Shown here: positions 9,332 through 26,496 of the stretch, one piece after another
Numbering within the stretch: the first letter of the stretch is position 1
Layout: each line of letters begins with the position of its first letter
Assembly: GCA_000004985.1 (NCBI GenBank)
Contig: GG738899.1
Strand: one strand, 5' to 3'
DNA from: Naegleria gruberi
Taxonomy: Eukaryota
DNA length: 64,000 nucleotides
Made by a program: the position numbers and the translations under genes
The notes under the pieces: model-generated
The model's input: only the letters and a program-made list of their open reading frames with translations
What the model was told of the DNA's origin: nothing
Database searches by the model: none

Positions 9332-10018
9332 ATGCATTCGTCCTTCCTCAATAAAGATAAAGATCATATACAATCAAACAACTACAGCAGGGTAAAGATA
9401 ATATATCCTCAACAACACTGTTTTAACATGTCCATAAGTAAATAATTTTACATGACTAAACAAGTCTTCTACATCCAAACTAGAACATCAAACCAATTGG
9501 CCATCAAATCATCATTCCACTACATCCTCCTTTCCATTTCATGATTGTATTCATTTCTACTCTGGCCCGAAATATCACACTACGTTACATTCCAGCATAC
9601 TTTCACCCATCATGTACTTGCTTATCACAAGAGATCTTTCAAACAACAACATTTAATCATTCATATTATAAGCAGCAAATAATTACCTTCCTTTCCCCTC
9701 ATCTCATCCATCACCAAATGCTTGCTGTGCTGCTTGACGAGGACACAATTTTTTCATCATTAAAAAAAATCACTAAAATTTTAAGCGGGAACCTTCAAAG
9801 CCTTTGTTCTTCCTCCTTTCCTTCACTGCACACGGCAAGAAACAACAACAACATCATCAGATTATATTGTTGTAGTAATAGTATTTGAAAAGGATACCTT
9901 AGTTATAACTAATTGTTATATTTCCGCTAACGAACGATTATTAAAATTATATATTTCTAGAAGAAGTATTATCATCATTGTCATCATCATTGTACTATAT
10001 TATTATTATTATTAAAAT

Positions 10019-11490
10019 ATGAGAGTATTTAAACAACGTATTAAAGTTAAACTTGGAAAGGCTGAATCTACTCAAGACCCAGAAGGATACAATGACTTAC
10101 GTGATCAAGTGAAAAAGACTGAAAATTATGCTAAAGGAGCTTTAAAGATTGTGAGAGGATATTGTCAAAAATCCGAAGCAATTACAAAGGTTCAAAATGA
10201 AGTTGGTCAATACTTGGTAGAAAGTGGTATGCAAACAAATGATGAAGGTAAGTTAATTTCTAGAGGATTCGGCTCAGTTAATAATTTTATGATGTTTGAT
10301 TGATGAAAATGACGAATTGACACAGTTGGTGAATCTTTGATGAAAATTGGAGAAGGATTAAAATCACTTGCTACTATTCACCATGCCATGTTGGTTAACA
10401 TTGTTGAAAAGTTTATTCAACCAGCTACAGAATTCAAGAAGGAAGTCAAGGATTCTGAAGTTTCTCATAAAAAGTATGACAAGAAGCGTTTGGAATTTGA
10501 TGCCCAAGTAGATCTTGTCAATTCATTAAAGCAAAAGGGTGAAAAGGTAGATCCACAAAAAGTTCAAACAGAAGAAGAAAAACAAACACAATTTGACAAT
10601 GAAAAGGATGAAGCTTTTGAAGAAACATTGGAAGAAACTTGTGATGTTTTGGTAAAGAGACAAACCAAGCACTTGGCACAACTCAATGAATTACTTTTGA
10701 GTTTCCACCACTTTTTTGCTGAAGGTTATACTCTTACACACGATTTGAAGGAACCATTGGAAAAATTAATGGAAAAATCCAACAAGAAAGCTTCCACATT
10801 CAAACAACAAACAGTGGAAAGTGTTTTGGGTGGAGGAGGATCTATCAGATCAACACCATCACAATCTTCATTCACACCTTCAACTAAATCAAACACTGAA
10901 ACATCAACTTCAACAGTCACAACAACCTCAACAGCCAAGTCATCAACTAATACTACTTCAACTAGTGCTGTTGGTGGTATGGGAGCTGCCTTCTCAGCTG
11001 CCAAAAAGACAGAAAGTGCTGCAGCAACAGTTTTGTGTAAATGTAAGGCCATGTATACTTATGATGCTCAGGATAGCACAGAAATTTCATTCACTGAAGG
11101 TGAAACTATTTTGGTTTATGAAAAGGAAGAAGGTGGATGGTGGAGAGGTGCTAGAGAAGCTACTCCAACCAAGTCTGGTATCTTCCCATCTAATTTCGTT
11201 GTAGATTCTAGTGCTTCTTCAGGTAGTGGAAAAACAACAACTGCATTGTATGATGTAAGTATTATTTGTTTTATTGGAATTGATTTATTAATTATTTTAT
11301 CATTTAAAATTATTTTGTTAAATTATTTAAATAGTATGAAGCTCAAGAATCAAACGAATTAACTTTCAAAGCAGGAGAAGTTATTGAAGTCATTGAGGAA
11401 GCAGATGGAGGGTGGTTTATGGGCAAGAATTTGTCAACAAACAAGGTTGGTCTTTTCCCTTCAAACTTTACAGAACTAGGAGCACAATAA
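10019..11490 (+). CDS. BAR-domain protein with two C-terminal SH3 domains (amphiphysin/Rvs167/endophilin-like). join(10019..10247,10326..11254,11334..11490)
   Basis: Intron 1 is 10248..10325 (GTAAGT...CACAG) and intron 2 is 11255..11333 (GTAAGT...AAATAG). The exon 2-3 junction restores a complete SH3 domain (ALYD|YEAQESNELTFKAGEVIEVIEEADGGWFMGKN...GLFPSNF). The first SH3 domain is CKAMYTYDAQDSTEISFTEGETILVYEKEEGGWWRG. The N-terminal 250 aa are helical and BAR-like. Confidence 0.7.
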
Positions 11491-13756: not shown

Positions 13757-16700
13757 TTATTTAAAATATGGATATTTGAGTAATTGTCTAGCTTGTGGTC
13801 TTGTTGCGCTATCTTTACCAACCATTTCAATAACGAGTTCAATAAGCTCAGTTGAGTAAATATTTGGTTTTTGCATATTTTCTGTAAGGATTTGTTTAAC
13901 TTGAGAACTGTCTTTAGAAAAATGGAGATGACTGATGGCAGTTGTAGTGTCATGTGTCATTAATTGATAAATAGTTACACCCAAACTGTAAACATCTGTG
14001 TTAAAACCATAACTTGCTCCCAAACCTAGTTCTGGACTCTGTGAAAATTGTTAACTTTCGAATAGCAATATACTAAACTTACCAAAAACATTGGAGTTCC
14101 ACAATAACTGTTATTTGCAGAAAGTGAATTATCCCTCGCCAATCCGAAATCTGCCAAAACTACCTGAATGTAATCTTGAGTCAATTCCTTAATAAAAATA
14201 TTCGATTCCTTAACATCTCTGTGAATCAGTTTCTTCTCTTCATGAATATATTCTAAAGCATTCAACATTTGGAACAATACACTTTTCAACAAGGTTTCGG
14301 ATATTTGAACTTTAAGTAAACTTGTCAAATCTCCCTTGTCATAATATTCCATCTCAATAACCAATAATTCATTCTTATCAACGAACATGTCATTCACCTT
14401 AATAATATTTGGATGTGCCATGTTCAATAATTGTAAACCTTCTTTCATGAATTGGTTTAGTTCAGAATAGGATTGGAATTTGATAGCTTTTAGAGCTTTG
14501 AAAGAATTGGTTTTGACATCGAAAGCTCTAAAGACAGATCCGAAACCTCCACTTCCAATCTTTACCATGTCCTTGAAACGACTCAATGGATCAAAAGAAG
14601 AAGAACTTGAGCTAGTTCCATTTGTGGAAGACGAAACTGATTGGAATTCCATGGTTGGTCGGAAGAATATGGAAGCTTCAGATTCGGGAAAATCGGTTGC
14701 TGTTATATCATTCTTGGATTCTATCATTTCCAAGTTGAGGTTTTCATTTGATTTCTTTTTTTTCCTAAAATAGAAAATTAGAATGATAATCAAAATTACA
14801 ATAATGACAATTAATAGAAAGACTGAAAGGATGGGAACTAGAGTTGCTATCAGAACTACTTGAGTTTCTTGTTGCTTTGAACTTTCTGGTGAGATTCGTA
14901 ATTGAGAACATTCGTTTCCAGAATAGTTTAAAGTACAGTTACATTGATTAGGAGAAACACATTGTCCTCTTTCTATGCCATTACATGCATCACTTGAATT
15001 CTTACCATAACAAATTGGAAGGCAATTCTCAAAATTTGAAATGAAATATCCAGTTGGACAGTTGACTGAAATTTTGTAAACAGTTCTAGCATTTGCAAAA
15101 AATATTTCACCAGTAGATTCACTAACAACAATCGAATTAGGATTACTATAAAAAACCATAATAATATCAACCTTTCCTTCCTTGTTTAGTTTCTTCAATC
15201 TTCCATTCTCAGCAAAATAAACTATTCCATTAATATTCGAAACATAAAGTGTACTAACAGCCTGTTGAGGGATATAAACAGTCGTTACAATTCCATTGCT
15301 ATCAATTTTCCTTATACCAACCGTATCTACATAATAGATTGAATCGGATAAACTATCGTAGCTTAATGAAACAGCACTTGAAATGATAAAATCAGTTGCT
15401 AGGGATCCGTCTGAGGAACGAGTGCCTCCACCAGCTACTTTTGAAATGGTATTATTTGAGGCCAATCTTATCAAGATATTATCTGAAAAGAATAAATAAC
15501 CACCTTCCTTATATGGTACAATTAATTTTGGACGTGGAATGTCTGTTAATCGATTGTTGACAACAGAACTTCCAGATCCAAACAAATCAAACGTTATCGT
15601 ATCAGTGAATGCTCGTACAATACAACGACACTGGTAGAAATTCTTGAGAAAAGGTTTTCAGGCATAATTGAGTCAACTACCACAACACTGCCTTGGAGTT
15701 TGGCTAATTTTAAAAATGCATGGGGCAATCCGGAGTGCCCTGTCTGTAGGGTATTGTCATTGTATTGTTCTGTGATTTCCATAATCTGCAAAGATATATT
15801 GGTTTGCAACTTTAGTAATTCCTGAAATTCCAGAAAGTTTTGTTTTCCTATTGTCAAACTCTGAGTTGTAATAACCTCCCAAACAAGGACCAATCAGATT
15901 TTTAACTCCCTTGCTTTGTAGATTGTATTGGAGTACTAGATTTTCACTTTGACTATATAAAATTAAATTATTTCCTGACATGGCTAAATTGGCCGAAAGG
16001 TCAACAAATTGTGGATCTTCACCATTGTATTCTCTGTAAACAGCTCCATAACCAGCTATTGTACTTAGTTTAGATGTTGTGTCGTTATACTTTCTTATTA
16101 ATTGATTTCCAGAATCGCAAATAATAAGTGTTCCATTTTGGTCAACTGTAAACGCAGTTGGATATCTTAATTTGTTATCATCAAAACCTGGTACGGTTCC
16201 AATCTGCGTGTTGCCGGCATTAGTAAGGTATCCATCTTCTGAATTGGTGTAAAACGACATTCCCTTATAGCGTCCCATATTTGTTACCTTGTATGGAAAA
16301 GTTGTAAGATATTGGAAAATATTTTCTATTATGATTGCAACAGAATTACCATCTGTAACAAATATACTTGTTTGTGATTGAATAGTTTCTACATAGATTG
16401 AGGTTGGTGCCTTAAAAAGATAATCAATATTCGAAACTATTCCATTCGAAACTATTCTAATTCTTCTATTTCCAGTATCTGAAATATAGAGAATACCATT
16501 ATTGTAGAATAAACCATTTGGATTGTTAAGCTGACAATTTATGGCCAAACCTTCTCCATTATATCCAGCAGTTCCATTTCCAGCTACTCTATAAACAGTA
16601 TCTGAGCTAATATTATAACGAATTACTCTATGATTATTCGAATCTGATATATACAATGATTGATAACTACTATCCATTACCAATGATTGAGGAAAATTCA

Positions 16701-18009
16701 GTAAAGTCTTGGTTCCTGCCATTCCATCAATGTCCGATAAAAACCCCGCTAATCCGGAATCTGCCCCAACCACTATTTTCAAAGTTTTGGTAGAAATGTC
16801 CAATTTCAATACTCGATTTGCATAACTTTCACTCATATAAATATTTCCCTCCAAATCTACAGCAATTCCTCTACATGCTGTCAATAGTTGAGTTTCGGCC
16901 ATGTAGACGAAACCTTGTCCTAAAGATTGAATTCTTTCAGTATTTGGGGAGAAACCAGCAAAGTTGTGCACATAGTTTTGTTCAATCACTCTAATTTTTT
17001 GATTATTTTTTTCTAAAAAGTAAACATTTCCATCAGACGAAACTTCAATACTTGTTGGATTGTAAAGAAAAAATTCAGTATCAAAGTGTTGCATTCCATT
17101 TCCTGCAATTGTTGTGATAGAACCATCTGTTGTTATCTTTCTAATACGATTATTTGCAGAATCTGCAAAGTAAACTTCATTATTCGAAACTCTAATGGCC
17201 TGTGGATAGTTTAGTTTAGTTTCAGTAGCACGTTTTCCATCTACATCAAACCCACATCCATTGTATCCTGCAATTGTTTCCATTTGTCCATTAAAAACTC
17301 TTCTCAATTTGCAATTGAACGTGTCAGCAATATAAATTTCACCTGTAGTATTCGAAACATGGACAGAATGTGGATAATTCAACATGGATAATGTTGCCAC
17401 ACCATCCGAATAACCAGCAGTTCCATTTCCAGCAATTGTCGTAATATTATTCGTAACAAACGAAAGCTTTCGAATAATATGATTTTCTTCTTCAACAAAA
17501 TACAATTCTCCACCATTTCTCTCAACTACAAATAAACCTCTTGGATTTTTCAAATTTGTTACCAATGCATTTCCATCTCCATTCCAAGAATCAACAAAAG
17601 TTCCAGCAACAATTGTTACCTTACTCAACAGATCGGAAGTAAAATTAAAAATTTGCTTTCCAGTCGAAACATAGATCGTATCCAGGGAGCTGCCACTCAT
17701 TCGTATTGAAGTAATTGCACGGTAGTCATTTCCGTTTCTTGTTGAAATGACAGTTTGACTAGTGACATTTATGGCGGTCAATTGGGAATCGTGAAGAACA
17801 TAAAGTGTGTCAATGCCATTGAAGGACATGTCAAGGGGTTGATAGAGTTTCAAGTTTCTGGCATGTTGGGATTGTCCAATAAATTTGGAGAGTTTATATT
17901 CGAGGGGAAGATTTTGGCCTTGTGTAAAAATTGGCAGCAATAATAAAAATGTCAAAGTCACTACACAAAATATCAGATAATTTGGCAAGTGACAGATGGC
18001 GTGTAACAT
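13757..18009 (-). CDS. NHL-repeat receptor Ser/Thr(/Tyr) protein kinase: signal peptide, about 20 NHL repeats, two EGF-like modules, TM helix, canonical kinase domain. The gene model is interrupted by two frameshifts at about 15590-15760 (possible pseudogene or assembly error)
   Basis: ATG at 18009 gives signal peptide MLHAICHLPNYLIFCVVTLTFLLLLPIFTQG. ORF 15757..18141 is wall-to-wall NHL repeats and ends ...ADYGNHRTIQ followed by TGA. Skipping one nt after that stop gives an NHL-like +1 frame (DNTLQTGHSGLPHAFLKLAKLQGSVVVVDS...). A second shift enters ORF 14026..15585 (more NHL, EGF CxCxxxYSGNEC, TM VVLIATLVPILSVFLLIVIIVILIIILIF, kinase with HRDVKESN, DFGLA). A 44-nt intron at 14039..14082 (GTAAGT...CACAG) joins GTPMFL|SPELGLGASYGFNTDVYSLG. 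There is no GT dinucleotide around the first shift, so it cannot be an intron. Confidence 0.5.
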
Positions 18010-18162
18010 GCTGAATTTTTTTTTGTTGGTTTGGAGTGTGACTCCGCCCTTTCCAGACTGAAATCTTTCAAAGGTTCCAACAAGACACTTCAATCTCTTT
18101 AAGCTTCTAAAAAGAGAAATTAATCGAATTTGTAATTTCACAAAAAATTCAAAAAAAATGAA

Positions 18163-20274
18163 ATGATCGTTGGTGGCGCCTTAAAAGGTCTCGGAATGAT
18201 TTTTCCCGCCAATTTGGAGCATATCGTAAATGAGGAGAATGAAGAGGAATTTATTTTGATTCGGAAGGGATTTGATAATAGAAAACAAGTTGCTTTAATT
18301 TCTGGTTAGTAACATATTCATTTGTTGGATTTGGATATATAAATTGGTGATACTATTTAATTTTATTATTTGATGATTTGATGAATTTAATTTGATTTTA
18401 ATATTATTGATGGTGATGAACAAATATGAAAAGGAGGAGGATCTGGACATTCACCATCACATGAAGGATTTGTTGCAAAAGGAATGCTCACAGCTGCTGT
18501 TTTGGGAGCTGTTTTTACTTCTCCGAGTGTTTTGCAAATCTTCAAGGCAATCACTGCTGTTACAAGCAGGAGACGAGTTGATGAAGAAGGAAAGGGATGC
18601 TTGTTGATTGTGAAGAATTATACAGGAGATATATTGAATTTTAGATTGGCTAGAGAAATGGCCATTCAAGATGGATATAATGTGGAGATGATTATTGTGG
18701 GAGATGGTATGTTGTTTGAATATATATGTGAAGATTGTAAAGTTTTTGAATGATTAGATGTTACTCATCAGAGAGGAGTTGCTGGAACTGTTTTTATTCA
18801 TAAATTGTGTGGAGCTATGGCTGAGAGAGGTGATTCATTGAGTGAGATTTTTGAGTTTATGAAATCAAAATTAAAAATCACATCGGAACAAGTATTGAAT
18901 AATGGAAATGAATCATTTATTAGGAGTATTGGAATTGGATTGAATAGTATTTCAATGCCAGGTAATTCGGAACCACTCTATGAATTGAGTGACAGCGATC
19001 CTGTCTATGAGCTCGGCTTGGGAATTCATGGAGAGAAGGGCGTTTGCAGACTTACATTTTCTCCAACTAATCCAGTCACTGAAATTTCCAACACAATGAT
19101 TGAACATTTATTACCAAAGGAATTCAGTGCCGAGAATCTCAAATTTGCTCTCATGATTAATAATTTAGGATCTACCACCTTGTTGGAAATGTACAATATT
19201 GCAAGGGTGGTAATTACCTTATTGGAAAATCAAAACATTTCTATTGAGAGAGTGTATGTTGGAACATTCATGACTGCTCTGAATATGCATGGATTCTCTC
19301 TCAGCTTGCTTAATTTAGCTCAAAACTCTGAACAATTATTAGAACTCTTGGACACTCCAACAGAGTCAATGTTTTGGCCAACTAGTTTGAATCTCTCCAA
19401 AAAATCAAACAATTCTTCGAGAACTAGTCACTCAACTGGAGGTATTAAACTGTCCCCTCAAATAGGAATAACAGCCACAACAAAATCCATCATATCTACT
19501 GAGGAAAATTCACAAGTAGAAAAATTCCTCTCACTCACAGGGGTCGTTTGTGATTTTATCTTGACAAGAATTAAAGAATATAATTCTTTGGACAGTGAAG
19601 TTGGAGATGGGGATTGCGGGAGTGCCATTGAAAGGTATGTACAAAATATCACATTATGTAATTATATAATTTATAACTATTTTATATATTTGGAATATTT
19701 TAGAGCTTGTGAATCAATTCAACAACACATCCTCAAAAAACAAGATTTGAAAATGACACTTGCCGAATTGGTTTATCAAATTGGAATTTGTGTTCAAAAT
19801 AGTGGAGGTAGTTCAGGAGCTATTATTTCCATGTTCTTTTTAAGATATTCCAAATCATTGAAAACGAATTCATTCGATCACAAGAAGGCATTCATTGAGG
19901 GAGTGCACGGAATGATGGAATTGGGTGATTCAAAGAAGGGAGACAGAACAATGCTCGATACTCTCATTCCAGTCAGTGAATATTTACAGGAACAAGAAGA
20001 ATCTATCGATGTGGAAACCATTGTTAAAGTTGCAAATGAAGGAATGGATAGTACAAAATCAATGCTTGCCAAAAGGGGTAGATCTCGTTATCTTGGAGAC
20101 AGAGTTTTAGGATTCTTAGATCCTGGTGCACTTTGCATGTTTGATATTGTCAAAATTTGGTCATTGTGGATGTTAGATAAATCACGGGTGGCTAACTCTA
20201 GCGATTTTTTTCGTGAAGTCTCCGACCCACGAGTTTTTTTTGCCACAGTAAATATTACAAGTTGTACTATTTGA
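18163..20274 (+). CDS. Dihydroxyacetone kinase / triokinase (DhaK + DhaL domains). join(18163..18304,18434..18741,18772..19634,19704..20274). The 3' end runs into the transposon, whose TIR supplies a 30-aa C-terminal extension
   Basis: Exon 1 is [15 protein letters not shown]...[10 protein letters not shown] 129-nt intron (GTTAGT...AAAAG) leads to [34 protein letters not shown] is the DhaK signature. A putative 30-nt intron (18742..18771, GTTTTT...ATCAG) removes an in-frame TGA and gives the same length between GDG and RGVAGT as in human TKFC. A 69-nt intron (GTATGT...TTTTAG) lies inside the DhaL domain, which carries GDGDCG. The reading frame reaches its stop only at 20272..20274, inside the element. 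Confidence 0.75.
20175..20182. repeat. Target-site duplication, left copy (AGATAAAT)
   Basis: Identical 8-mer immediately outside both TIR ends. Confidence 0.75.
20183..20241. repeat. Left terminal inverted repeat of the transposon
   Basis: CACGGGTGGCTAACTctagcgattttttttcgtgaagtctccgaCCCACGAGTTTTTttt. The capitalised blocks have reverse-complement partners at the right end. Confidence 0.7.
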
Positions 20275-20554
20275 ACCAATATACAATCAATAAATGTTTT
20301 GAAAATGTAAATAATCATATTTAAAGACTAGACTCTATCGTTTACCTGTTGACGAAAAATCTTGGGGTTTTATCAACCCCTAATAAAGAATTTGATGTGT
20401 GCAACAATCATAAAAATAAATATAACCATAAAAGGTATTGAAAAATGACTAACCGAGCTCAAAATCAAATATAACGAGTTTTATTCGAAATACTAATACA
20501 AAAATTGGTAAGTACCTTTCTTCTTACTTCAATAACGAAATGTAAAATTTTGAA

Positions 20555-23500
20555 TTAAATATCTTGAGAGTTGATGATTTGAGAAGGTTGCGGTTCAATT
20601 TCAATTTCCTCAAATAAGCAATTATTGCACCATCTTTCAAATTTAACACATGAATCACAAATAAGAGATCCACAATCATGACATCTACGTACTGACTGAG
20701 TTCTGAAGTGACATGATTCACAGACAAATTGAGGGAAATGAGTGGAACAATTTTTACAAACTCCTTGAAATTCACATAAATTACAAATCTCCACTCCACA
20801 TTGATTACACTCATCAAGTGATTTTGTGTATCCTAAACAAATGTGGCATGGATAAATTGGATAGAAAAGTTCTGTAAAACAATCTATGCAATATAATTGA
20901 TGCCAACATGAATCACAAAACAACCTGAAACAATCACCACACTTATTAATTCCTCTCTCATGTCTACAATAGTTGCAACCTTGTTGTTCACAAATATCTG
21001 GATCACATTTACAAGTATTTGGAAAGCAATATCGTTCATTCTTCTTACAGGAGCATTTAAGGTTTGAGCAACTGGTTGTACAACGGCATCCTGTTACCTT
21101 AGTAAGCTTGGATTCTGAATTTGATTTCTTTCTTTTTTTCTCAATATTTGAGGTTTTAGAGAATTCTTGAATATTCGAAATGGCTGTGTTAACATCATCA
21201 AAAAATTTGTTTAAAATATTAAATAATCCAATTACATCAAAGAATGCACAATGACAATCCGCAACATTTCCCACTTGGAAATGTTCAATTAACATTTCTT
21301 CTTTGAATGCAGTTCTTCCACTACTCTCTTTTTTTGGTAATTTGTGATGTAGATCTTTGTGGCTTTTCATTAATTTCAAGGAATCTACGAAAACTATATT
21401 TTCAAACTTTGATTCTCTTTTCGGATAAAACTCTTTCTTAAATACTTTGAAATCAAGTATCTCACCATTGTGCGCAATTAAGAAAGTTTTCCCTTTAGTA
21501 TTACTAATAAAATCAATAATAAAATCAAGCTCCTTTTCAATGATTGGTTTGTCTCTTACATAATTCAAATTGATTCCAGTAATCTTTGTTGAATGATATG
21601 AAATTGATTTTGTTGGATTTACTAATCCATAAATTGATTCACCTGTTGCCATATTTAAAAAGCAATATTCTGTTATTTTTGGTGGATCATCATTTGTCCA
21701 AAATCCTGTTGTTTCAAAATCAAACAGAATATATTTGTCATCTCCAAAATCATGTTGAAATGGAAGACCCTTATTGTGTGTGTACAAATCATCATTGAAT
21801 AAAATTCTGGAAGCTCGTGGGATTGGTTCTGAAGGTCTAATTTTTTGATCTACTATTGATTTATCAACAGTATTTGTAATAAGTGTTAATAAATTATCAC
21901 TGTCCAATAGGTTGGAAGAATCTGACTGTTTGATTGATTTCAATAAAGCTTCAATCATTGACTGCTTTCCCTCTGAAAATGAATAATTATGAACGTTCAT
22001 TACATGTTTCAAAAATGATTTCAATCTCACAAAAGGTTGATTACATTCTTTACAAAGAATGTAAATATTATTCATGATGTTTTTTGAGTCAATGTTCGGT
22101 GGATTTTTACACATGAATTCTCGTATGAGCATAGTGTTTCTTTGAGGTTCAAATCCTTCTACAGCATCCAATATATAATCGAACATTTCAGTAAAACTAT
22201 TTTCTTTCTCTAATATTTGATCTTCTTCTTCCTCTGTAAGTTTTTTCTTATTCTTCTTCTTATACTTCTTTCTAGTTAATTCCTCATACTCCAATTCCAA
22301 ATCTATTTTTCCATAACAATTCGAATAACTCTCATTTCTCAAAACAAATGGTCCGTCACTTAGTTTTGCTTTTAACACTAACCAAACAGATCTATAACAG
22401 GAACAATAATCCATAAATGTTGGATATCTAATTTTGGATCTAACAATGCTGAAACAATGTTCTACCATTAATGTAGATAAGCTACAAGTACATAGCTCAA
22501 TTGTTGGAAATCTTGTCTTAAGCTCCTTTAAGGATTTTAATGTAATTATAATATGATCAAATAATTCATTATTTAAAGAAATATCGTTTGATTTTTGCCA
22601 TGGATTAATAAATTGAAAAACAGAGTCTAACAGAATCTCTTTTGCTTCCCAACAATAATCATTTTTGAAAATATAATAAATATCCTGCATTAGTTTTAAA
22701 TATTTAGAGACTGTTTGACAAGTAGTATTTTTTGATTTGGCCAAACCATCAATTAAATTAGTTTCTAATAATGCAAATACGGGATCCATAGCCATTTTGT
22801 CAGTAGGATAAATCACAGAATTAGGTAGCCAATCAGTTAAATTTGATTCAGATTTGGCAATCAATAACGTCTCAATTGAAAATGAAATGCCATCTATAGT
22901 CATGGTTTCATTTAGTAATCTATTTCGTAATCGTTTTAGTAGATGAGAGTAATCAAAGAAGTGAACAGTATTGGGAAATATTTTTTGTGTTTGGAAAAAT
23001 GTTAAATTTCCAGTCAATCCATCGCTACTGAAACCTACAACTTGGAAAGAATAATTATTTAACTGAATTCTTTCAAACTGTTCCTTAATCTTTTTTACTT
23101 GATCTTCCAAAAAATCTGCATGACTTGATTTTGTACAACCTGCAAACATTAAAGGGAAAGAAACACTTCCATCAATTGTAGTAGCAAAGAATTGGCAAAT
23201 GTGAGAAGCAATTTGGGAAGGTACAATTTCTTCTTTAGATTTGTATAGCTGATCAAAATCTTTTTCATTATAATCTGCAAATCCTATAACTTTTCCAGAA
23301 TCTTTAAGAACACATAACCCTCCTCTTATTTCTATTTCATCATATGAAATTATTATATTATTCGTAACTTTCTTTTTCTGTATAGATTTCAATAAAGATT
23401 GCAAATCTAAATCAGAGGTTTGCCCTGTAGATAATTTGGGAAGATAAGATTTCACTGTTGCTAGAGATGGAAGTAATAAATTCACTTCATCAAGGGCTGT

Positions 23501-24226
23501 TTGAGAATTCAAAGCTGAGCCATTTCCTTTCAATATTTTCCATATTTTTGATCCACCAAAATATCTTAAAATTAGACACCAATGAATAATAGATTCCTTA
23601 TACTGATATCCTCTTGACTTATTATAATTAGTGATATTTTCCAAAGTATTTTCCATTAATTGGTAGAAAAATTGTTGTTCATGCAGTTTTTCATCTTCAA
23701 TAGCAGCAATCACCAATTTTACAAGTTTGTGATGATGAATTTTGGATAGTTTTTCCTCTAATGAATCCAATTTTTCTTCCCGTCTTGTTAACATAGATTT
23801 TAATTGAGATACTTTCTTTCTTAATTTCTCTATTTGATCTTTTTGTTTGATTAATTTTTCGTCAGAGTTGTTTGATTTAGTGGTTGTCATATGTCGCAAT
23901 TTTTCATATAATTGATAACAATCTGTGCAAACTCCATTCCGATTTAAATTAATATTTCCACATTTCAATGATTTGAAAATGAAATTTCCATTATCATTAA
24001 ATGATACAATTCCTACTTCATTGTTTCGTTTGTCACAAACTTTTCCATCATAATTTAATAAATTCCATACTTTTTCCACAGCAACTCCTTTACATGTAGT
24101 ATTATTATTTTTACAGTTAGCACATGATCGTGTATCAGCATGTTTACATTTCCCCATGCCTTCTTTAATTTCCGAAAATCCTTTTTCTGAATTATATTCA
24201 ACTTTGATCGTTTCATCATTTGCCAA
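20555..24226 (-). CDS. Transposon-encoded 1223-aa polyprotein. N-terminal Cys-cluster region, coiled coil, central region of about 600 aa (putative transposase core, unclassified), DEDDh 3'-5' exonuclease domain, C-terminal array of at least 8 B-box/zinc-ribbon-like CxxC...CxxC modules
   Basis: Intronless 3.7-kb ORF in a genome whose host genes have an intron every few hundred bp. Exo I motif ILFDFETTGF, Exo II LIAHNGEILDFKVF, Exo III CHCAFFDVIGLFNIL (H-x-A-x-x-D): the complete DEDDh triad set. Coiled coil around DQIEKLRKKVSQLKSMLTRREEKLDSLEEKLSKI. The C-terminus carries repeated pairs of the type CQQGCNYCRHERGINKCGDC, CDSCWHQLYCIDC, CHICLGYTKSLDECNQCGVEIC, CEFQGVCKNCSTHFPQFVCESCHFR, CHDCGSLICDSCVKFERWCNNC. 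Confidence 0.75.
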   Translation of the reverse strand: MANDETIKVEYNSEKGFSEIKEGMGKCKHADTRSCANCKNNNTTCKGVAVEKVWNLLNYDGKVCDKRNNEVGIVSFNDNGNFIFKSLKCGNINLNRNGVCTDCYQLYEKLRHMTTTKSNNSDEKLIKQKDQIEKLRKKVSQLKSMLTRREEKLDSLEEKLSKIHHHKLVKLVIAAIEDEKLHEQQFFYQLMENTLENITNYNKSRGYQYKESIIHWCLILRYFGGSKIWKILKGNGSALNSQTALDEVNLLLPSLATVKSYLPKLSTGQTSDLDLQSLLKSIQKKKVTNNIIISYDEIEIRGGLCVLKDSGKVIGFADYNEKDFDQLYKSKEEIVPSQIASHICQFFATTIDGSVSFPLMFAGCTKSSHADFLEDQVKKIKEQFERIQLNNYSFQVVGFSSDGLTGNLTFFQTQKIFPNTVHFFDYSHLLKRLRNRLLNETMTIDGISFSIETLLIAKSESNLTDWLPNSVIYPTDKMAMDPVFALLETNLIDGLAKSKNTTCQTVSKYLKLMQDIYYIFKNDYCWEAKEILLDSVFQFINPWQKSNDISLNNELFDHIIITLKSLKELKTRFPTIELCTCSLSTLMVEHCFSIVRSKIRYPTFMDYCSCYRSVWLVLKAKLSDGPFVLRNESYSNCYGKIDLELEYEELTRKKYKKKNKKKLTEEEEDQILEKENSFTEMFDYILDAVEGFEPQRNTMLIREFMCKNPPNIDSKNIMNNIYILCKECNQPFVRLKSFLKHVMNVHNYSFSEGKQSMIEALLKSIKQSDSSNLLDSDNLLTLITNTVDKSIVDQKIRPSEPIPRASRILFNDDLYTHNKGLPFQHDFGDDKYILFDFETTGFWTNDDPPKITEYCFLNMATGESIYGLVNPTKSISYHSTKITGINLNYVRDKPIIEKELDFIIDFISNTKGKTFLIAHNGEILDFKVFKKEFYPKRESKFENIVFVDSLKLMKSHKDLHHKLPKKESSGRTAFKEEMLIEHFQVGNVADCHCAFFDVIGLFNILNKFFDDVNTAISNIQEFSKTSNIEKKRKKSNSESKLTKVTGCRCTTSCSNLKCSCKKNERYCFPNTCKCDPDICEQQGCNYCRHERGINKCGDCFRLFCDSCWHQLYCIDCFTELFYPIYPCHICLGYTKSLDECNQCGVEICNLCEFQGVCKNCSTHFPQFVCESCHFRTQSVRRCHDCGSLICDSCVKFERWCNNCLFEEIEIEPQPSQIINSQDI

Positions 24227-24356
24227 TTTTTCAACAAATCTTATTAGCTTCTGATAATGACTGTGACATAAACGTGACGTTTTTTTGTTGATTATTATAT
24301 TATCAGGAACATTTCTTGTGCCAGGCTGTTTACAACAACAACAACTTGTACGTTGT

Positions 24357-24408
24357 TTTCTTCATGACATTTTTTTGTTTTTTACTCAAAAAAATGTCAT
24401 GAAGACCC
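24357..24408. repeat. Second subterminal hairpin inside the transposon, just upstream of the ORF start
   Basis: cttcatgacattttttt gttttttactc aaaaaaatgtcatgaag (17-bp perfect inverted repeat). Confidence 0.6.
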
Positions 24409-24612
24409 AACACAGCCGGAGTTCTTTACCTAGGATGTTCAAGCCAAGTATTATTCTCAAGAAACTAGAACCAATTCATAAATTAAATATTTAATTAGAT
24501 TACTAGTAATAACCCGCCAGGTTCATACAATGAATAAACATTTAAATTTTTTTATTTTTTAACGGAATTAATTTGCTTTGATGAAAATATAATGGAGACT
24601 GTTGGTATGTTT

Positions 24613-24721
24613 CATGCAAAGTTCCACGTTGGTCAAATAATTATTAACATCAACAAGTAGTAGAAAACAGTAGGTTTTAAATTATTGGATTAGTTTTTTG
24701 ACCAACGTGGAACTTTACATG
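24613..24721. repeat. Subterminal hairpin inside the transposon (25-bp inverted repeat, one mismatch, about 60-nt loop)
   Basis: catgcaaagttccacgttggtcaaa ... tttgaccaacgtggaactttacatg. Confidence 0.65.
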
Positions 24722-24934
24722 AACGAGGGCACACTTTGAAGATTATTTTTCTGTGGCTTTATGTTATTCTTGTAATATATCTACAGACTCGGAAAGTTGC
24801 CAAGCAATAAATAAACAATACTAGTACTCATATGTTCAAAAGAATGACAAAGATCAACTTTAGATGTATTATAAATCGATTTAAAAGTTGAAAATTATTT
24901 ATTGATGAGCAACAACAAATTCCAATTTTATTTA

Positions 24935-24999
24935 AAAACTCGTGGGACACAAATGCTCGATTGCCTGAGCCAAAAATGACCCATAGTTAGCCACCCGTG
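24935..24999. repeat. Right terminal inverted repeat of the transposon
   Basis: AAAAACTCGTGGGacacaaatgctcgattgcctgagccaaaaatgacccatAGTTAGCCACCCGTG. Confidence 0.7.
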
Positions 25000-25007
25000 A
25001 GATAAAT
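25000..25007. repeat. Target-site duplication, right copy (AGATAAAT)
   Basis: Identical 8-mer immediately outside both TIR ends. Confidence 0.75.
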
Positions 25008-25194
25008 GATTGAGTTTTGTGAAACAGCTCATCAACGGAAATTGGTTGTATCCAATTAATTTTCAAAAAAGAAATCCATTATCTTACTGTAATCAATTAT
25101 TACAATCTAAAATTGATTACAAGTAGCATCTGATACCAACACCATTATAACCAAACTGTTGAAACTTGACGAAACTTTTTCATCTTTAAAAAAA

Positions 25195-26496
25195 ATGAAA
25201 AGATTCATTGGTGGTTTATTTCTCGTACTAATCTTTGCCACTGTTGCCATGTGTGCCAGCAGTGATGCATTCGACACCTTGAGTGATTACATCTCTCTCG
25301 CAGACTCCCTCAGAGGAGGTGGTTCTTCAGGAGGTGGAGGTGGCAGAGGAGGTGGATCCGGTGGTGGTGGCAGAGGAGGAGGTAGCTCTGGAAGTAGAGG
25401 AGGATCCAGCAGAGGAGGAAGTAGCTCTGGAAGATCAAGCACTGGAGGTAGATCAAGTACTGGTGGTAGATCAAGAAGTACTGGAGGAAGAGTTTCTGGA
25501 CCTGGTCGTTCACCAACTGGACCTTCTAGATCAATTGGTGCAACTAAAGGTGGAAGAGTTGGAGGAAGAGTTGGTGGAAGAGTTTCTGGACCAGGTAGAT
25601 CACCAACTGGACCTGCCAGATCAAGAGTTGGAAGAGTTTCTGGACCAGGACGTGCTCCAACATCTGTTTCCATTCAAAGAAATGCCATTCAAAGTAGAAT
25701 TAATGCTGCATTTGCTGGATTGAGTAAGGTTTCTACCAATCCTGCCTTGTCAGCTGCTCTTTCTAGATATGCCTCAATGAAAGCTGCTTCCTTGAAAGCT
25801 CCTTCAGTAACTAGTGCATTATTCTCCAAGACTCCATTGGGTCCAGTGAGTACTTTCTCAAAGGTCAACCCATCCTTGCCAACCAACAAGTTCACTAAAC
25901 CTGCAACTGTTGCCAATGTTCCTATTCCACAACCTCGTCCTGCCAATTTGGCCAAACCAGCAACTCAAACTGTTGCTGCTACTACCAGTGTCAAGAATCC
26001 AATTAATCCTGCTGGTGTCCAAAGAGTTGCTCGTAGTAAGCAACTTACTGGACCACAAGTAGCTCAAAAAGCAATTAAGGAATTAGCTGCTGCTGGTGTT
26101 ACTTTATCAGCCGATCCAAAACAAAGAATTGCTCAAATTGCTGACCAAATGGCCAACCCAGGATCATTACACAAATGTGCTGGTTATGTTGCTGCTGCTG
26201 TTGAAGCTGCTACAGGAGTCTCTCTCAGCAGACCTGCCTCAGCTGAAGCTAAGGATTACGGAACTACCATGGCCAAGGCTGGAATGAAGTCAATTCCAAA
26301 TAATAGCACTCCACAAATTGGTGATGTCAGAGTGATTGGACCATCTCCAACCAATGCCAAGTACAGTATTGGTCATATGGAGACCTATACTGGACCAAAG
26401 AGTGGATGGGTTTCTGATTATGCTCAAGGAGTATCTGCTGTTGATAATCCAAAGAGTGCTTATCATGGAGCTTCTGTTTCTACCTATCGTTTCTAA
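25195..26496 (+). CDS. Secreted protein with a Gly/Ser/Arg-rich repetitive region, an Ala/Pro/Ser-rich linker and a C-terminal CHAP-like (cysteine, histidine-dependent amidohydrolase/peptidase) domain
   Basis: Signal peptide MKRFIGGLFLVLIFATVAMCASS. Degenerate tandem peptide repeats (GGGSGGGGRGG..., RVSGPGRSPTGP x3). The C-terminal module HKCAGYVAAAVEAATG ... IGDVRVIGPS ... YSIGHMETYTG ... WVSDY has the Cys...G-D-V...G-H-hydrophobic spacing of CHAP/NlpC-P60 peptidoglycan hydrolases. No introns. Confidence 0.55.
   Translation: MKRFIGGLFLVLIFATVAMCASSDAFDTLSDYISLADSLRGGGSSGGGGGRGGGSGGGGRGGGSSGSRGGSSRGGSSSGRSSTGGRSSTGGRSRSTGGRVSGPGRSPTGPSRSIGATKGGRVGGRVGGRVSGPGRSPTGPARSRVGRVSGPGRAPTSVSIQRNAIQSRINAAFAGLSKVSTNPALSAALSRYASMKAASLKAPSVTSALFSKTPLGPVSTFSKVNPSLPTNKFTKPATVANVPIPQPRPANLAKPATQTVAATTSVKNPINPAGVQRVARSKQLTGPQVAQKAIKELAAAGVTLSADPKQRIAQIADQMANPGSLHKCAGYVAAAVEAATGVSLSRPASAEAKDYGTTMAKAGMKSIPNNSTPQIGDVRVIGPSPTNAKYSIGHMETYTGPKSGWVSDYAQGVSAVDNPKSAYHGASVSTYRF
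25310..25680. repeat. Coding low-complexity tandem repeat (GGN/AGA-rich, irregular 9-36-nt units)
   Basis: The repetitive ggtgg/aggagg/agagg runs generate the spurious overlapping ORFs seen in all frames of the ORF track at 25283..25723. Confidence 0.5.

Follow-up and report, generated by a model that had tools for sequence, protein, structure and literature searches.

Terminal exons and poly(A) sites that stem from transposons occur in animals and plants. A bacterial protein end of this origin has been described in Coxiella burnetii, where the last 33 residues of EnhC stem from a QMITE2 insertion (PMC5896051). The dihydroxyacetone kinase/triokinase (DAK) gene of Naegleria gruberi resembles that case in that an element is located at the gene's 3' end, the context of the stop codon is replaced, the reading frame runs on to the first in-frame stop codon of the element, and the extension is about 30 residues long. 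It differs from EnhC in that the insertion is that of an autonomous eukaryotic P-type transposon of full length and not of a MITE, that the cut lies within the stop codon, and that the element end also carries a predicted canonical eukaryotic poly(A) site.

The element shares with the Drosophila P element and human THAP9 an 8-bp target-site duplication, short terminal inverted repeats (TIRs) starting with CA and a predicted RNase H-like core fold. Compared to Drosophila P, the TIRs are 15 nt rather than 31 and a THAP domain is undetected by Pfam, while the Naegleria transposase appears to have a C-terminal DEDDh (TREX/PolC-like) domain and a Cys-rich tail that are absent from the Drosophila enzyme. 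In the literature searched we found no report of P-type elements in Naegleria, of Naegleria DAK or of fusions between a P transposase and an exonuclease.

We analyzed a window of 64 kb, i.e., the whole stretch of 64,000 nucleotides from contig GG738899.1. The event at the DAK gene is of an ordinary, textbook-like kind and alters no general principle. An offset of one base in the target cut was enough to make a serine codon of the former stop codon, and a conserved metabolic enzyme would thereby gain 30 foreign residues. We consider it likely that the overall account given here is correct, namely that a P-type element inserted in the DAK stop codon, that the coding region was extended by 30 codons and that the element donated a predicted poly(A) site.

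The ancestral part of the DAK coding region is located on the plus strand at positions 18163-20181 and ends ...WMLDK. In the model of this analysis the exons are 18163-18304, 18434-18706, 18758-19634 and 19704-20181, and the spliced translation is in frame. The three introns are 51-129 nt long, and two of them start with GTATGT. The protein matched N. gruberi XP_002672186.1 (NAEGRDRAFT_72653) at 100% identity. That record (UniProt D2VUG3) lacks the first two exons and includes the transposon tail unflagged; the public protein model P0001 has the same tail. The DAK protein cluster has a single member, and no second N. gruberi DAK was found among the best 120 protein matches listed.

N. gruberi DAK has both domains of the two-domain DAK/triokinase family (Dak1 plus Dak2, TKFC-type). 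The Pfam matches to Dak1 (E 1.2e-36, 126.7 bits) and Dak2 (E 8.3e-31, 107.6 bits) were both above threshold. The protein retains every invariant column of a 61-sequence alignment, and the GLGIHGE, DGDxG, GGSSGA and DPG motifs all lie in such columns. The preliminary description had held that the DhaL (Dak2) domain is intact. This is borne out, as the match runs to profile position 170 of 174, and ends nine residues before the junction with the element, and the domain is complete. Identity was 55% to the DAK of N. lovaniensis, 53% to that of N. fowleri and 48% to that of Willaertia.

The homologues also show where the protein used to end. From the DPG motif to the C-terminus the reconstructed protein has 21 residues; in 60 homologues (range 17-36) the median is likewise 21, and the orthologues of Naegleria and Willaertia end 18-26 residues past DPG. 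The present protein has 51 residues past DPG and exceeds all 60 homologues, i.e., relative to the DAK family it carries 30 additional C-terminal residues that have no counterpart in any of them. An orthologous empty site was sought by synteny, but tblastx of positions 10000-34000 of the window against the DAK locus of N. lovaniensis matched DAK only. With no flanking gene common to the two loci, the comparison is confined to the protein termini. A further protein search, in which the last 127 residues served as query and which was directed at fragments, other strains and transcript-derived reading frames, returned six distant bacterial DhaL proteins only and missed the N. gruberi protein itself, and was uninformative. 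A 24-mer from the DAK 3' end gave no match in a scan of metagenomes.

The DAK stop codon is interrupted by a complete DNA transposon of the P superfamily, 4,817 bp long (20183-24999), with its transposase gene on the minus strand. The element is bounded by perfect 15-nt TIRs, CACGGGTGGCTAACT, at 20183-20197 (plus strand; encoding tail residues S(R)VAN) and at 24985-24999 (minus strand), which occur nowhere else in the 64-kb window; the number of such inverted-repeat pairs expected by chance in the window is 0.01. The repeat can be followed for about 29 nt at 79% identity. Both flanks carry a perfect copy of an 8-bp target-site duplication, AGATAAAT, at 20175-20182 and 25000-25007. The ancestral TGA began with the last T of the left copy. 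The right copy is followed by GA (25000-25009, plus strand), so that the orphaned ancestral TGA is found at 25007-25009. Beyond it lies the orphaned ancestral 3' flank of DAK (25010-25194, plus strand), which extends over 185 nt as far as the start codon ATG (25195) of the following gene and is now 4.8 kb from DAK. The insertion and its boundaries are thereby established, and the earlier proposal that a transposon with TIRs rewrote the C-terminus of DAK is confirmed at the DNA level, the element having split the stop codon.

When the element and one copy of the duplication are removed in silico (20182 joined to 25008), the reading frame ends ...WMLDK-TGA. The reconstructed empty site reads ...GATAAATGA with the junction GGATGTTAGATAAATGATTGAGTTTTG, while the junctions of the filled site are GATAAATCACGGGTGG and CCACCCGTGAGATAAATGA. 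Together with the median distance from DPG, this establishes the ancestral terminus and agrees with the ...DK-stop proposed in the preliminary description. A cut-and-paste transposon of the P superfamily entered the 8-bp target AGATAAAT at the extreme 3' end of DAK, by a staggered cut that parted the T of the TGA stop codon from its GA. Because the cut split T from GA, the T of the stop codon and the opening CA of the element now form a TCA serine codon. Translation past TCA would then run through 30 element codons and end at 20272-20274, where the frame meets its first TGA. The insertion also severed DAK from its native 3' flank.

Two related copies of the element in N. lovaniensis (L001 and L004) are located at unrelated loci. 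They have the same termini, CACGGGTGG..AACTC, and carry their own 8-bp duplications, GATTTTAT and AAAAAAAT. An 8-bp duplication is therefore found in all three complete copies, the N. gruberi element included, and the target was AT-rich in each of these three insertions. A copy from N. fowleri (L003) is without the terminal approximately 30 bp and without an inverted repeat and is not usable as a third bounded copy. In N. gruberi, the copy described here was the only one found for the transposase. A scan of metagenomes with the repeat pattern CACGGGTGGNNAACTCNAGCG gave 19 matches, all of them in bacterial contigs of 55-77% GC and with no similarity beyond the pattern, and we ascribe these to chance.

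The new C-terminal extension continues the last DAK exon on the plus strand (frame 1 of 20161-20274) and consists of 30 codons (20182-20271) followed by the stop codon TGA (20272-20274). It had been stated that the frame runs 90 nt into the TIR and ends at a TGA inside the element. The position of the stop codon and the reading of 30 element codons stand; the TIR, with 15 perfect nt, accounts for only the first five or so residues (SRVAN), and the remainder is encoded by subterminal element sequence. Part of this is a 13-mer, CCCACGAGTTTTT, at 20226-20238 (plus strand), which encodes tail residues DPRVF and has its partner at the opposite end of the element (24934-24946, minus strand). The two copies are the only ones in the window, are inverted and lie 43 and 53 nt from the termini, with 0.05 expected by chance; the 13-mer is a candidate transposase-binding motif. 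The first approximately 55 nt of the tail-coding DNA can be aligned with an N. lovaniensis copy, at its transposase-3' end, which shows that the tail DNA stems from the transposon.

The length of the extension is unremarkable, as the three frames that enter this element end reach a stop codon after 3, 22 and 29 codons. Inspection of the tail revealed no SKL-type C-terminal signal, and its Cys is at position -3, which leaves no CaaX box. An AlphaFold model of DAK with the tail, made without alignment support for the latter, was helical in the tail (pLDDT 78/68/47) and uninformative on whether the tail is tolerated. An mRNA and a protein extended by 30 codons are plausible, with indirect support from the AAUAAA site described below, and the enzyme may tolerate the tail, as the preliminary description had cautiously suggested.

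The poly(A) sites of N. gruberi are determined mainly by AAUAAA, and cleavage takes place 15-20 nt downstream of it; 3' UTRs have a median length of 39 nt, with UGUA upstream and a U-rich stretch downstream serving as auxiliaries (PMC11529991). The left end of the element holds a predicted poly(A) site of this kind on the plus strand (20263-20301), composed of UGUA (20263-20266), AAUAAA (20289-20294) and U-rich TGTTTTG (20295-20301). The hexamer starts 15 nt past the new stop codon. On the DAK strand no other AATAAA occurs between position 18100 and this one, and the gene contains none earlier. Cleavage is predicted near 20310-20315, and an mRNA cut at this site would carry a 3' UTR of approximately 36-41 nt. 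As these signals match the published rules for N. gruberi, an extended mRNA is plausible. As a local control, eight of 24 long open reading frames in the window were found to have an AATAAA no more than 60 nt from the stop codon, compared to 5.9% of random positions. Neither of the N. lovaniensis copies has an inward-facing AATAAA at its matching end, and the hexamer was rejected as a conserved or selected terminator. Its presence at this element end is probably due to chance, given this lack of conservation.

No AAUAAA or AUUAAA was found in the native 185-nt 3' flank of DAK. DAK may hence have used a variant hexamer, e.g., a GAUAAA that overlaps its last two codons. This GAUAAA is retained in the left copy of the duplication (20176-20181) and could direct cleavage within the extension, ahead of any stop codon. 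Cleavage approximately 15-20 nt downstream of it would yield non-stop mRNAs that are degraded, or else the hydrophobic tail might destabilize the enzyme, and the gene would then be a hypomorphic or null allele and not a working chimera. Besides the bare native flank, a U-rich run (20204-20211) that follows the retained GAUAAA is in line with this, as are the overlapping or dual-use signals and very short 3' UTRs that are common in N. gruberi (PMC11529991). The perfect TIRs and duplication and the uninterrupted transposase reading frame also suggest that the insertion is recent and has maybe not yet been tested by selection. On the other hand, AAUAAA is the dominant signal in N. gruberi (PMC11529991), and a perfect copy with both auxiliaries lies just past the new stop codon. 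With no second DAK among the 120 matches listed, a null allele would moreover delete the only copy detected, although the enzyme may be dispensable in culture. We regard such a loss of function as unlikely on balance. Somewhat more probable, yet still doubtful, is that the insertion is polymorphic, being either heterozygous in the sequenced strain or specific to the laboratory lineage, with an intact ...DK-stop allele that carries the function and a chimera that is inconsequential. The same signs of youth, among them the intact frame of 1,223 codons, would fit this, and so would the transposase being the sole copy found in N. gruberi. An empty-site sequence was not found, and the single-member DAK cluster and the metagenome scan without matches speak against it, but these searches are a weak test as N. 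gruberi read sets and other strains are beyond their reach. A polymorphic insertion is compatible with the main account at the DNA level.

Two further explanations have very little in their favor. If the 4.8-kb element were spliced from DAK transcripts as an intron, the terminus might be restored or altered; GGGTGG close to the left end indeed contains a GT, and at the right junction GTGAG, directly before ATAAATGA, provides an AG. However, DAK introns are only 51-129 nt long, the candidate donor GTGGCT is poor compared to the GTATGT of two of the three, the resulting splice would not give back DK-stop, and a strong predicted poly(A) site lies 100 nt into the element. Splicing of this kind is highly improbable. 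That the tail is native to DAK, with the repeat and the duplication present by chance, is less probable still and can be considered refuted. The open frame agrees with a native tail and nothing else does: the repeat pair has the low chance expectation given above, the empty-site reconstruction yields an exact stop codon, the tail DNA is homologous to the ends of the N. lovaniensis element, and none of the 60 homologues has a C-terminus of such length.

The transposase gene is located on the minus strand at 20555-24157 and encodes 1,200 amino acids from the ATG; its reading frame is open from 24226 (1,223 codons) and uninterrupted. The protein was found to comprise a P-type RNase H-like core with the putative catalytic residues D296, D402 and E589, a C2H2-like finger, a predicted DEDDh exonuclease domain (approximately 825-1015) and a Cys-rich C-terminus. 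In 35 relatives the D/D/E residues are conserved as well. The motifs DE..I, SDG..N and E..FS..R are conserved features shared with the Drosophila P and human THAP9 transposases. The Pfam match to TNP-like_RNaseH_N (PF21787) scored 25.8 bits against a cut-off of 24.6, with relatives scoring up to 51.8 bits. Searches of the PDB by sequence only, with either the transposase or a three-sequence profile, did not reach the P-element transposase, whereas a fold search did. The core, as modeled by AlphaFold (pLDDT 86), matched the Drosophila P-element transposase in Foldseek (6pe2_A, E 1.4e-16, TM 0.71; 6p5a_A, E 3.8e-16); the top alignment spanned 515 columns for a chain of 456 residues, and the next fold had an E of 3e-5. 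According to this model the transposase has the P-element fold. The N-terminus is Cys-rich, and no Pfam match to a THAP domain was obtained at E <= 5 in the proteins of N. gruberi, N. lovaniensis or N. fowleri.

A profile built from these three proteins matched the exonuclease of PolC (E 2.7e-9) and TREX1 (E 1.9e-5). For Pfam RNase_T, the N. lovaniensis and N. fowleri proteins scored 23.4-24.2 bits, at the 24-bit cut-off, the N. gruberi protein gave no match, and relatives scored 44-51 bits. By these similarities, a DEDDh exonuclease domain is probably fused to the transposase.

A broader joint reading is speculative and, in our judgment, improbable as a whole. The element would represent an undescribed branch of the P superfamily with a fused DEDDh 3'-5' exonuclease, present throughout Heterolobosea and Amoebozoa, still able to move in Naegleria and passed between N. 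fowleri and N. lovaniensis by horizontal transfer. The element end in N. gruberi would act as a ready 3' cassette (open frame, stop codon and UGUA-AAUAAA-U-rich signals) that spares insertions at gene ends in a compact genome, and the DAK chimera would be a first step of exaptation. The locus offers a natural experiment on how insertions at gene ends are tolerated in a compact protist genome, and public direct RNA-seq exists, the nanopore reads of PMC11529991 having been aligned to the assembly analyzed here (GCA_000004985). It also brings to light what appears to be an exonuclease-fused family of P-type transposons in Naegleria, the pathogen N. fowleri included.

The reading frame at 20161-20274 (+ strand, frame 1; a 37-residue translation) is the end of a long plus-strand ORF in which Pfam detects Dak1 (E 1.2e-36) and Dak2 (E 8.3e-31). 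The model that we built for this dihydroxyacetone kinase gene (DAK) has four exons (18163-18304, 18434-18706, 18758-19634, and 19704-20274, + strand) and a product of 620 residues. Its three introns measure 51-129 nt, and two of the three start with GTATGT. The top database match, with 100% identity, was 'predicted protein [Naegleria gruberi]' (XP_002672186.1, NAEGRDRAFT_72653, UniProt D2VUG3), a 556-residue model already closed by the same 30-residue C-terminal extension (the tail). No second N. gruberi DAK was found among the best 120 matches. The public model begins MLTAAVLG and lacks the upstream exon 18163-18304 and the start of 18434-18706, and the missing sequence encodes the conserved ISGGGSGH motif region. 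The N-terminus of our model is still about 15 residues short relative to the N. lovaniensis and N. fowleri orthologues. The locus is compact: a large protein rich in NHL-like repeats (15757-18141, - strand) lies head-to-head with DAK, and the outermost possible starts of the two ORFs are only about 20 nt apart.

DAK abuts a transposon of 4,817 bp (20183-24999) bounded by identical 8-mers, AGATAAAT, at 20175-20182 and 25000-25007. Its two ends carry the 15-mer CACGGGTGGCTAACT (20183-20197, +; 24985-24999, -), which has no further copy in the 64-kb window; 0.01 matches would be expected by chance. The inverted repeat continues imperfectly to about 29 nt (79%). Farther in, 43 nt from one terminus and 53 nt from the other, is another inverted motif, CCCACGAGTTTTT, with no other copy in the window. 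Joining 20182 to 25008 reconstructs an empty site reading ...TGG ATG TTA GAT AAA TGA (...WMLDK-stop), which places the staggered cut inside the stop codon, after its T and before GA. This T now precedes the CA opening the element, creating TCA (Ser). Past the junction the frame is open for 30 codons, to a TGA at 20272-20274. This length is unremarkable, as the three frames entering this end of the element close after 3, 22, and 29 codons. The preliminary description had the frame run 90 nt into the left terminal inverted repeat (TIR) to a TGA within the element; the length and the stop were correct, but only 15 nt belong to the TIR while 75 nt are subterminal.

The ancestral C-terminus was assessed in a 61-sequence alignment by counting the residues that follow the invariant DPG motif. 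Their number has a median of 21 in 60 homologues (range 17-36), and is 23 in N. lovaniensis, 26 in N. fowleri, 18 in Willaertia magna, and 20 in Acrasis kona. Reconstructed N. gruberi DAK has 21 residues after DPG, exactly the homologue median, while the present protein has 51, exceeding every one of the 60 homologues. The ancestral ...DK-stop proposed from the sequence is thus borne out. The Dak2 match extends to profile position 170 of 174, stopping nine residues short of the junction, and every invariant alignment column is kept, including GLGIHGE, DGDxG, GGSSGA, and DPG. On this sequence evidence the catalytic domains are intact, as had been stated for the DhaL (Dak2) domain. AlphaFold gave helices for the tail (pLDDT 78, 68, and 47) without alignment support, and these were given no weight.

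A search of 5.8 billion proteins with the minus-strand ORF of the element (20555-24226; 1,200 aa counted from an ATG at 24157) yielded no more than three homologous clusters: one is the N. gruberi protein (XP_002672253.1, NAEGRDRAFT_72654), one holds three proteins each from N. lovaniensis and N. fowleri, and one is a further N. fowleri protein. Two N. lovaniensis copies lie at unrelated loci. The first, L001 (5087-9706), has termini CACGGGTGGCCAACTC and GAGTTGTCCACCCGTG and the duplication GATTTTAT; the other, L004 (2537-7050), has the same terminal core, CACGGGTGG, and the duplication AAAAAAAT. The N. lovaniensis element, at its transposase-3' end, can be aligned with the first ~55 nt of the end abutting DAK (CACGGGTGG.yAACTC.AGCG.TTTTTTCGTGAA...ACGAG), so that the tail-coding DNA is conserved sequence of the element end. 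The inverted repeat encodes SRVAN and the subterminal 13-mer DPRVF; the other residues come from less conserved subterminal DNA. The TIRs, the 8-bp duplication, and this homology agree with the proposal that a transposon rewrote the DAK terminus; the observation is confirmed, and its interpretation is supported at the sequence level once the TIR is corrected.

In animals and plants, terminal exons and poly(A) sites derived from transposons are common. Mobile elements extending or replacing protein C-termini are well documented, and Coxiella EnhC likewise has a mobile-element-derived end, of 33 residues from QMITE2 (PMC5896051). DAK adds a new case, unusually clean and from a deep-branching protist, of a kind of event already known.

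The insertion also cut off the native 3' flank of DAK, 185 nt (25010-25194) ending at the ATG of the next gene at 25195. Direct RNA sequencing of N. gruberi identified AAUAAA as the top hexamer and main determinant of poly(A) sites, with cleavage 15-20 nt downstream, a median 3' UTR of 39 nt, and UGUA upstream and U-rich sequence downstream as auxiliary elements (PMC11529991). Between 18100 and 20288 the DAK strand lacks AATAAA; the hexamer first appears at 20289-20294, 15 nt beyond the new stop, with TGTA before it (20263) and TGTTTTG after it. Read by the N. gruberi rules, these signals predict cleavage near 20310-20315, and with it a 3' UTR about 36-41 nt in length. A local control found AATAAA within 60 nt of the stop in 8 of 24 long ORFs of the window vs. 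5.9% of random positions. The element end thus appears to supply codons, stop, and poly(A) site to DAK. The transposase gene converges on DAK and has its own AATAAA at 20485 (minus strand); with both sites in use, the DAK and transposase transcripts could avoid overlapping. A selected terminator function for the element end lacks support, because the N. lovaniensis copies do not share the inward AATAAA.

The native gene could instead have used the variant GAUAAA, and cleavage there would now yield a non-stop mRNA. The native flank contains neither AAUAAA nor AUUAAA, and a GAUAAA overlapping the last two DAK codons persists at 20176-20181, within the left copy of the duplication, with a U-run after it in the repeat; we nevertheless consider this unlikely. 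The sizes and donor sequences of the DAK introns, together with the predicted poly(A) site just inside the element, make it very unlikely that the element is spliced out of DAK transcripts. The insertion may be heterozygous or strain-specific, since it looks young (perfect duplication and repeats, an intact 1,223-codon ORF) and only one element copy was detected in N. gruberi.

Pfam assigned TNP-like_RNaseH_N to the transposase with 25.8 bits (cut-off 24.6). A profile search of 1.84 billion representative proteins returned 335 relatives; those named come from Amoebozoa transcriptomes (Protostelium, Soliformovum), and metagenome contigs 4-9 kb in length account for the others. Seven long relatives were scanned, and in four of them TNP-like_RNaseH_N (up to 51.8 bits) is joined by an RNase_T exonuclease domain at the C-terminus. 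Residues 150-720, modelled by AlphaFold with a 35-sequence alignment (mean pLDDT 86, pTM 0.84), best matched the Drosophila P-element transposase strand-transfer complexes 6pe2_A and 6p5a_A (E 1.4e-16 and 3.8e-16; TM 0.71 and 0.70), the next fold following at E 3e-5. D296, D402, and E589, the acidic residues of YDEIEI, SSDG, and VEHCFS, are conserved across relatives. Sequence, fold, catalytic residues, and the 8-bp duplication therefore place the element in the P superfamily. Unlike the Drosophila P/THAP9 type, it has 15-nt repeats and no THAP domain detected by Pfam, and its transposase carries a probable exonuclease domain of the DEDDh (TREX1/PolC-like) type (about residues 825-1015 of ORF 20555-24226, - strand) and a Cys-rich C-terminus (about residues 1040-1223). 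No description of a P-type transposase-exonuclease fusion was found in the literature searched, and the element family, with its apparently exonuclease-fused P-type core, is the more unusual by-product of the analysis.

All three duplications seen (AGATAAAT, GATTTTAT, and AAAAAAAT) are AT-rich and end in AT. At L004 (7042-7060, PYSW02000004.1) the AT that ends AAAAAAAT also supplies the first two bases of the start codon (ATG 7057) of the next annotated gene. In these compact genomes, insertions of the family seem to be directed to AT-rich sequence at the very edges of genes. Directly downstream of the N. gruberi element, the gene at 25195-26496 (+) encodes a protein whose N-terminus is hydrophobic and signal-like (MKRFIGGLFLVLIFATVAMCASS) and which has long Gly/Ser/Arg-rich repeats; the insertion put 4.8 kb between DAK and the upstream region of this gene.

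An N. fowleri copy, L003 (~9960-10125, VFQX01000034.1), matches the N. lovaniensis element end until about 30 bp remain to the terminus and then diverges. It has no inverted repeat, its protein lacks about 90 residues including the third catalytic region, and it is probably an immobilised, decaying copy. The element proteins of N. lovaniensis and N. fowleri (P0122 and P0123) share 98% identity over 437 residues and 92% over a further 411, whereas the DAK orthologues of the two species (P0002 and P0003) are only 74% identical. This gap suggests either a recent horizontal transfer or shared activity until very recently, with the pathogen N. fowleri involved. The 5' non-coding region of the N. 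gruberi element (24227-24984) contains a perfect 19-nt hairpin with a 9-nt loop (24359-24405) and a 33-nt inverted repeat (91%) with arms 47 nt apart (24611-24723), which are possible promoter or regulatory structures.
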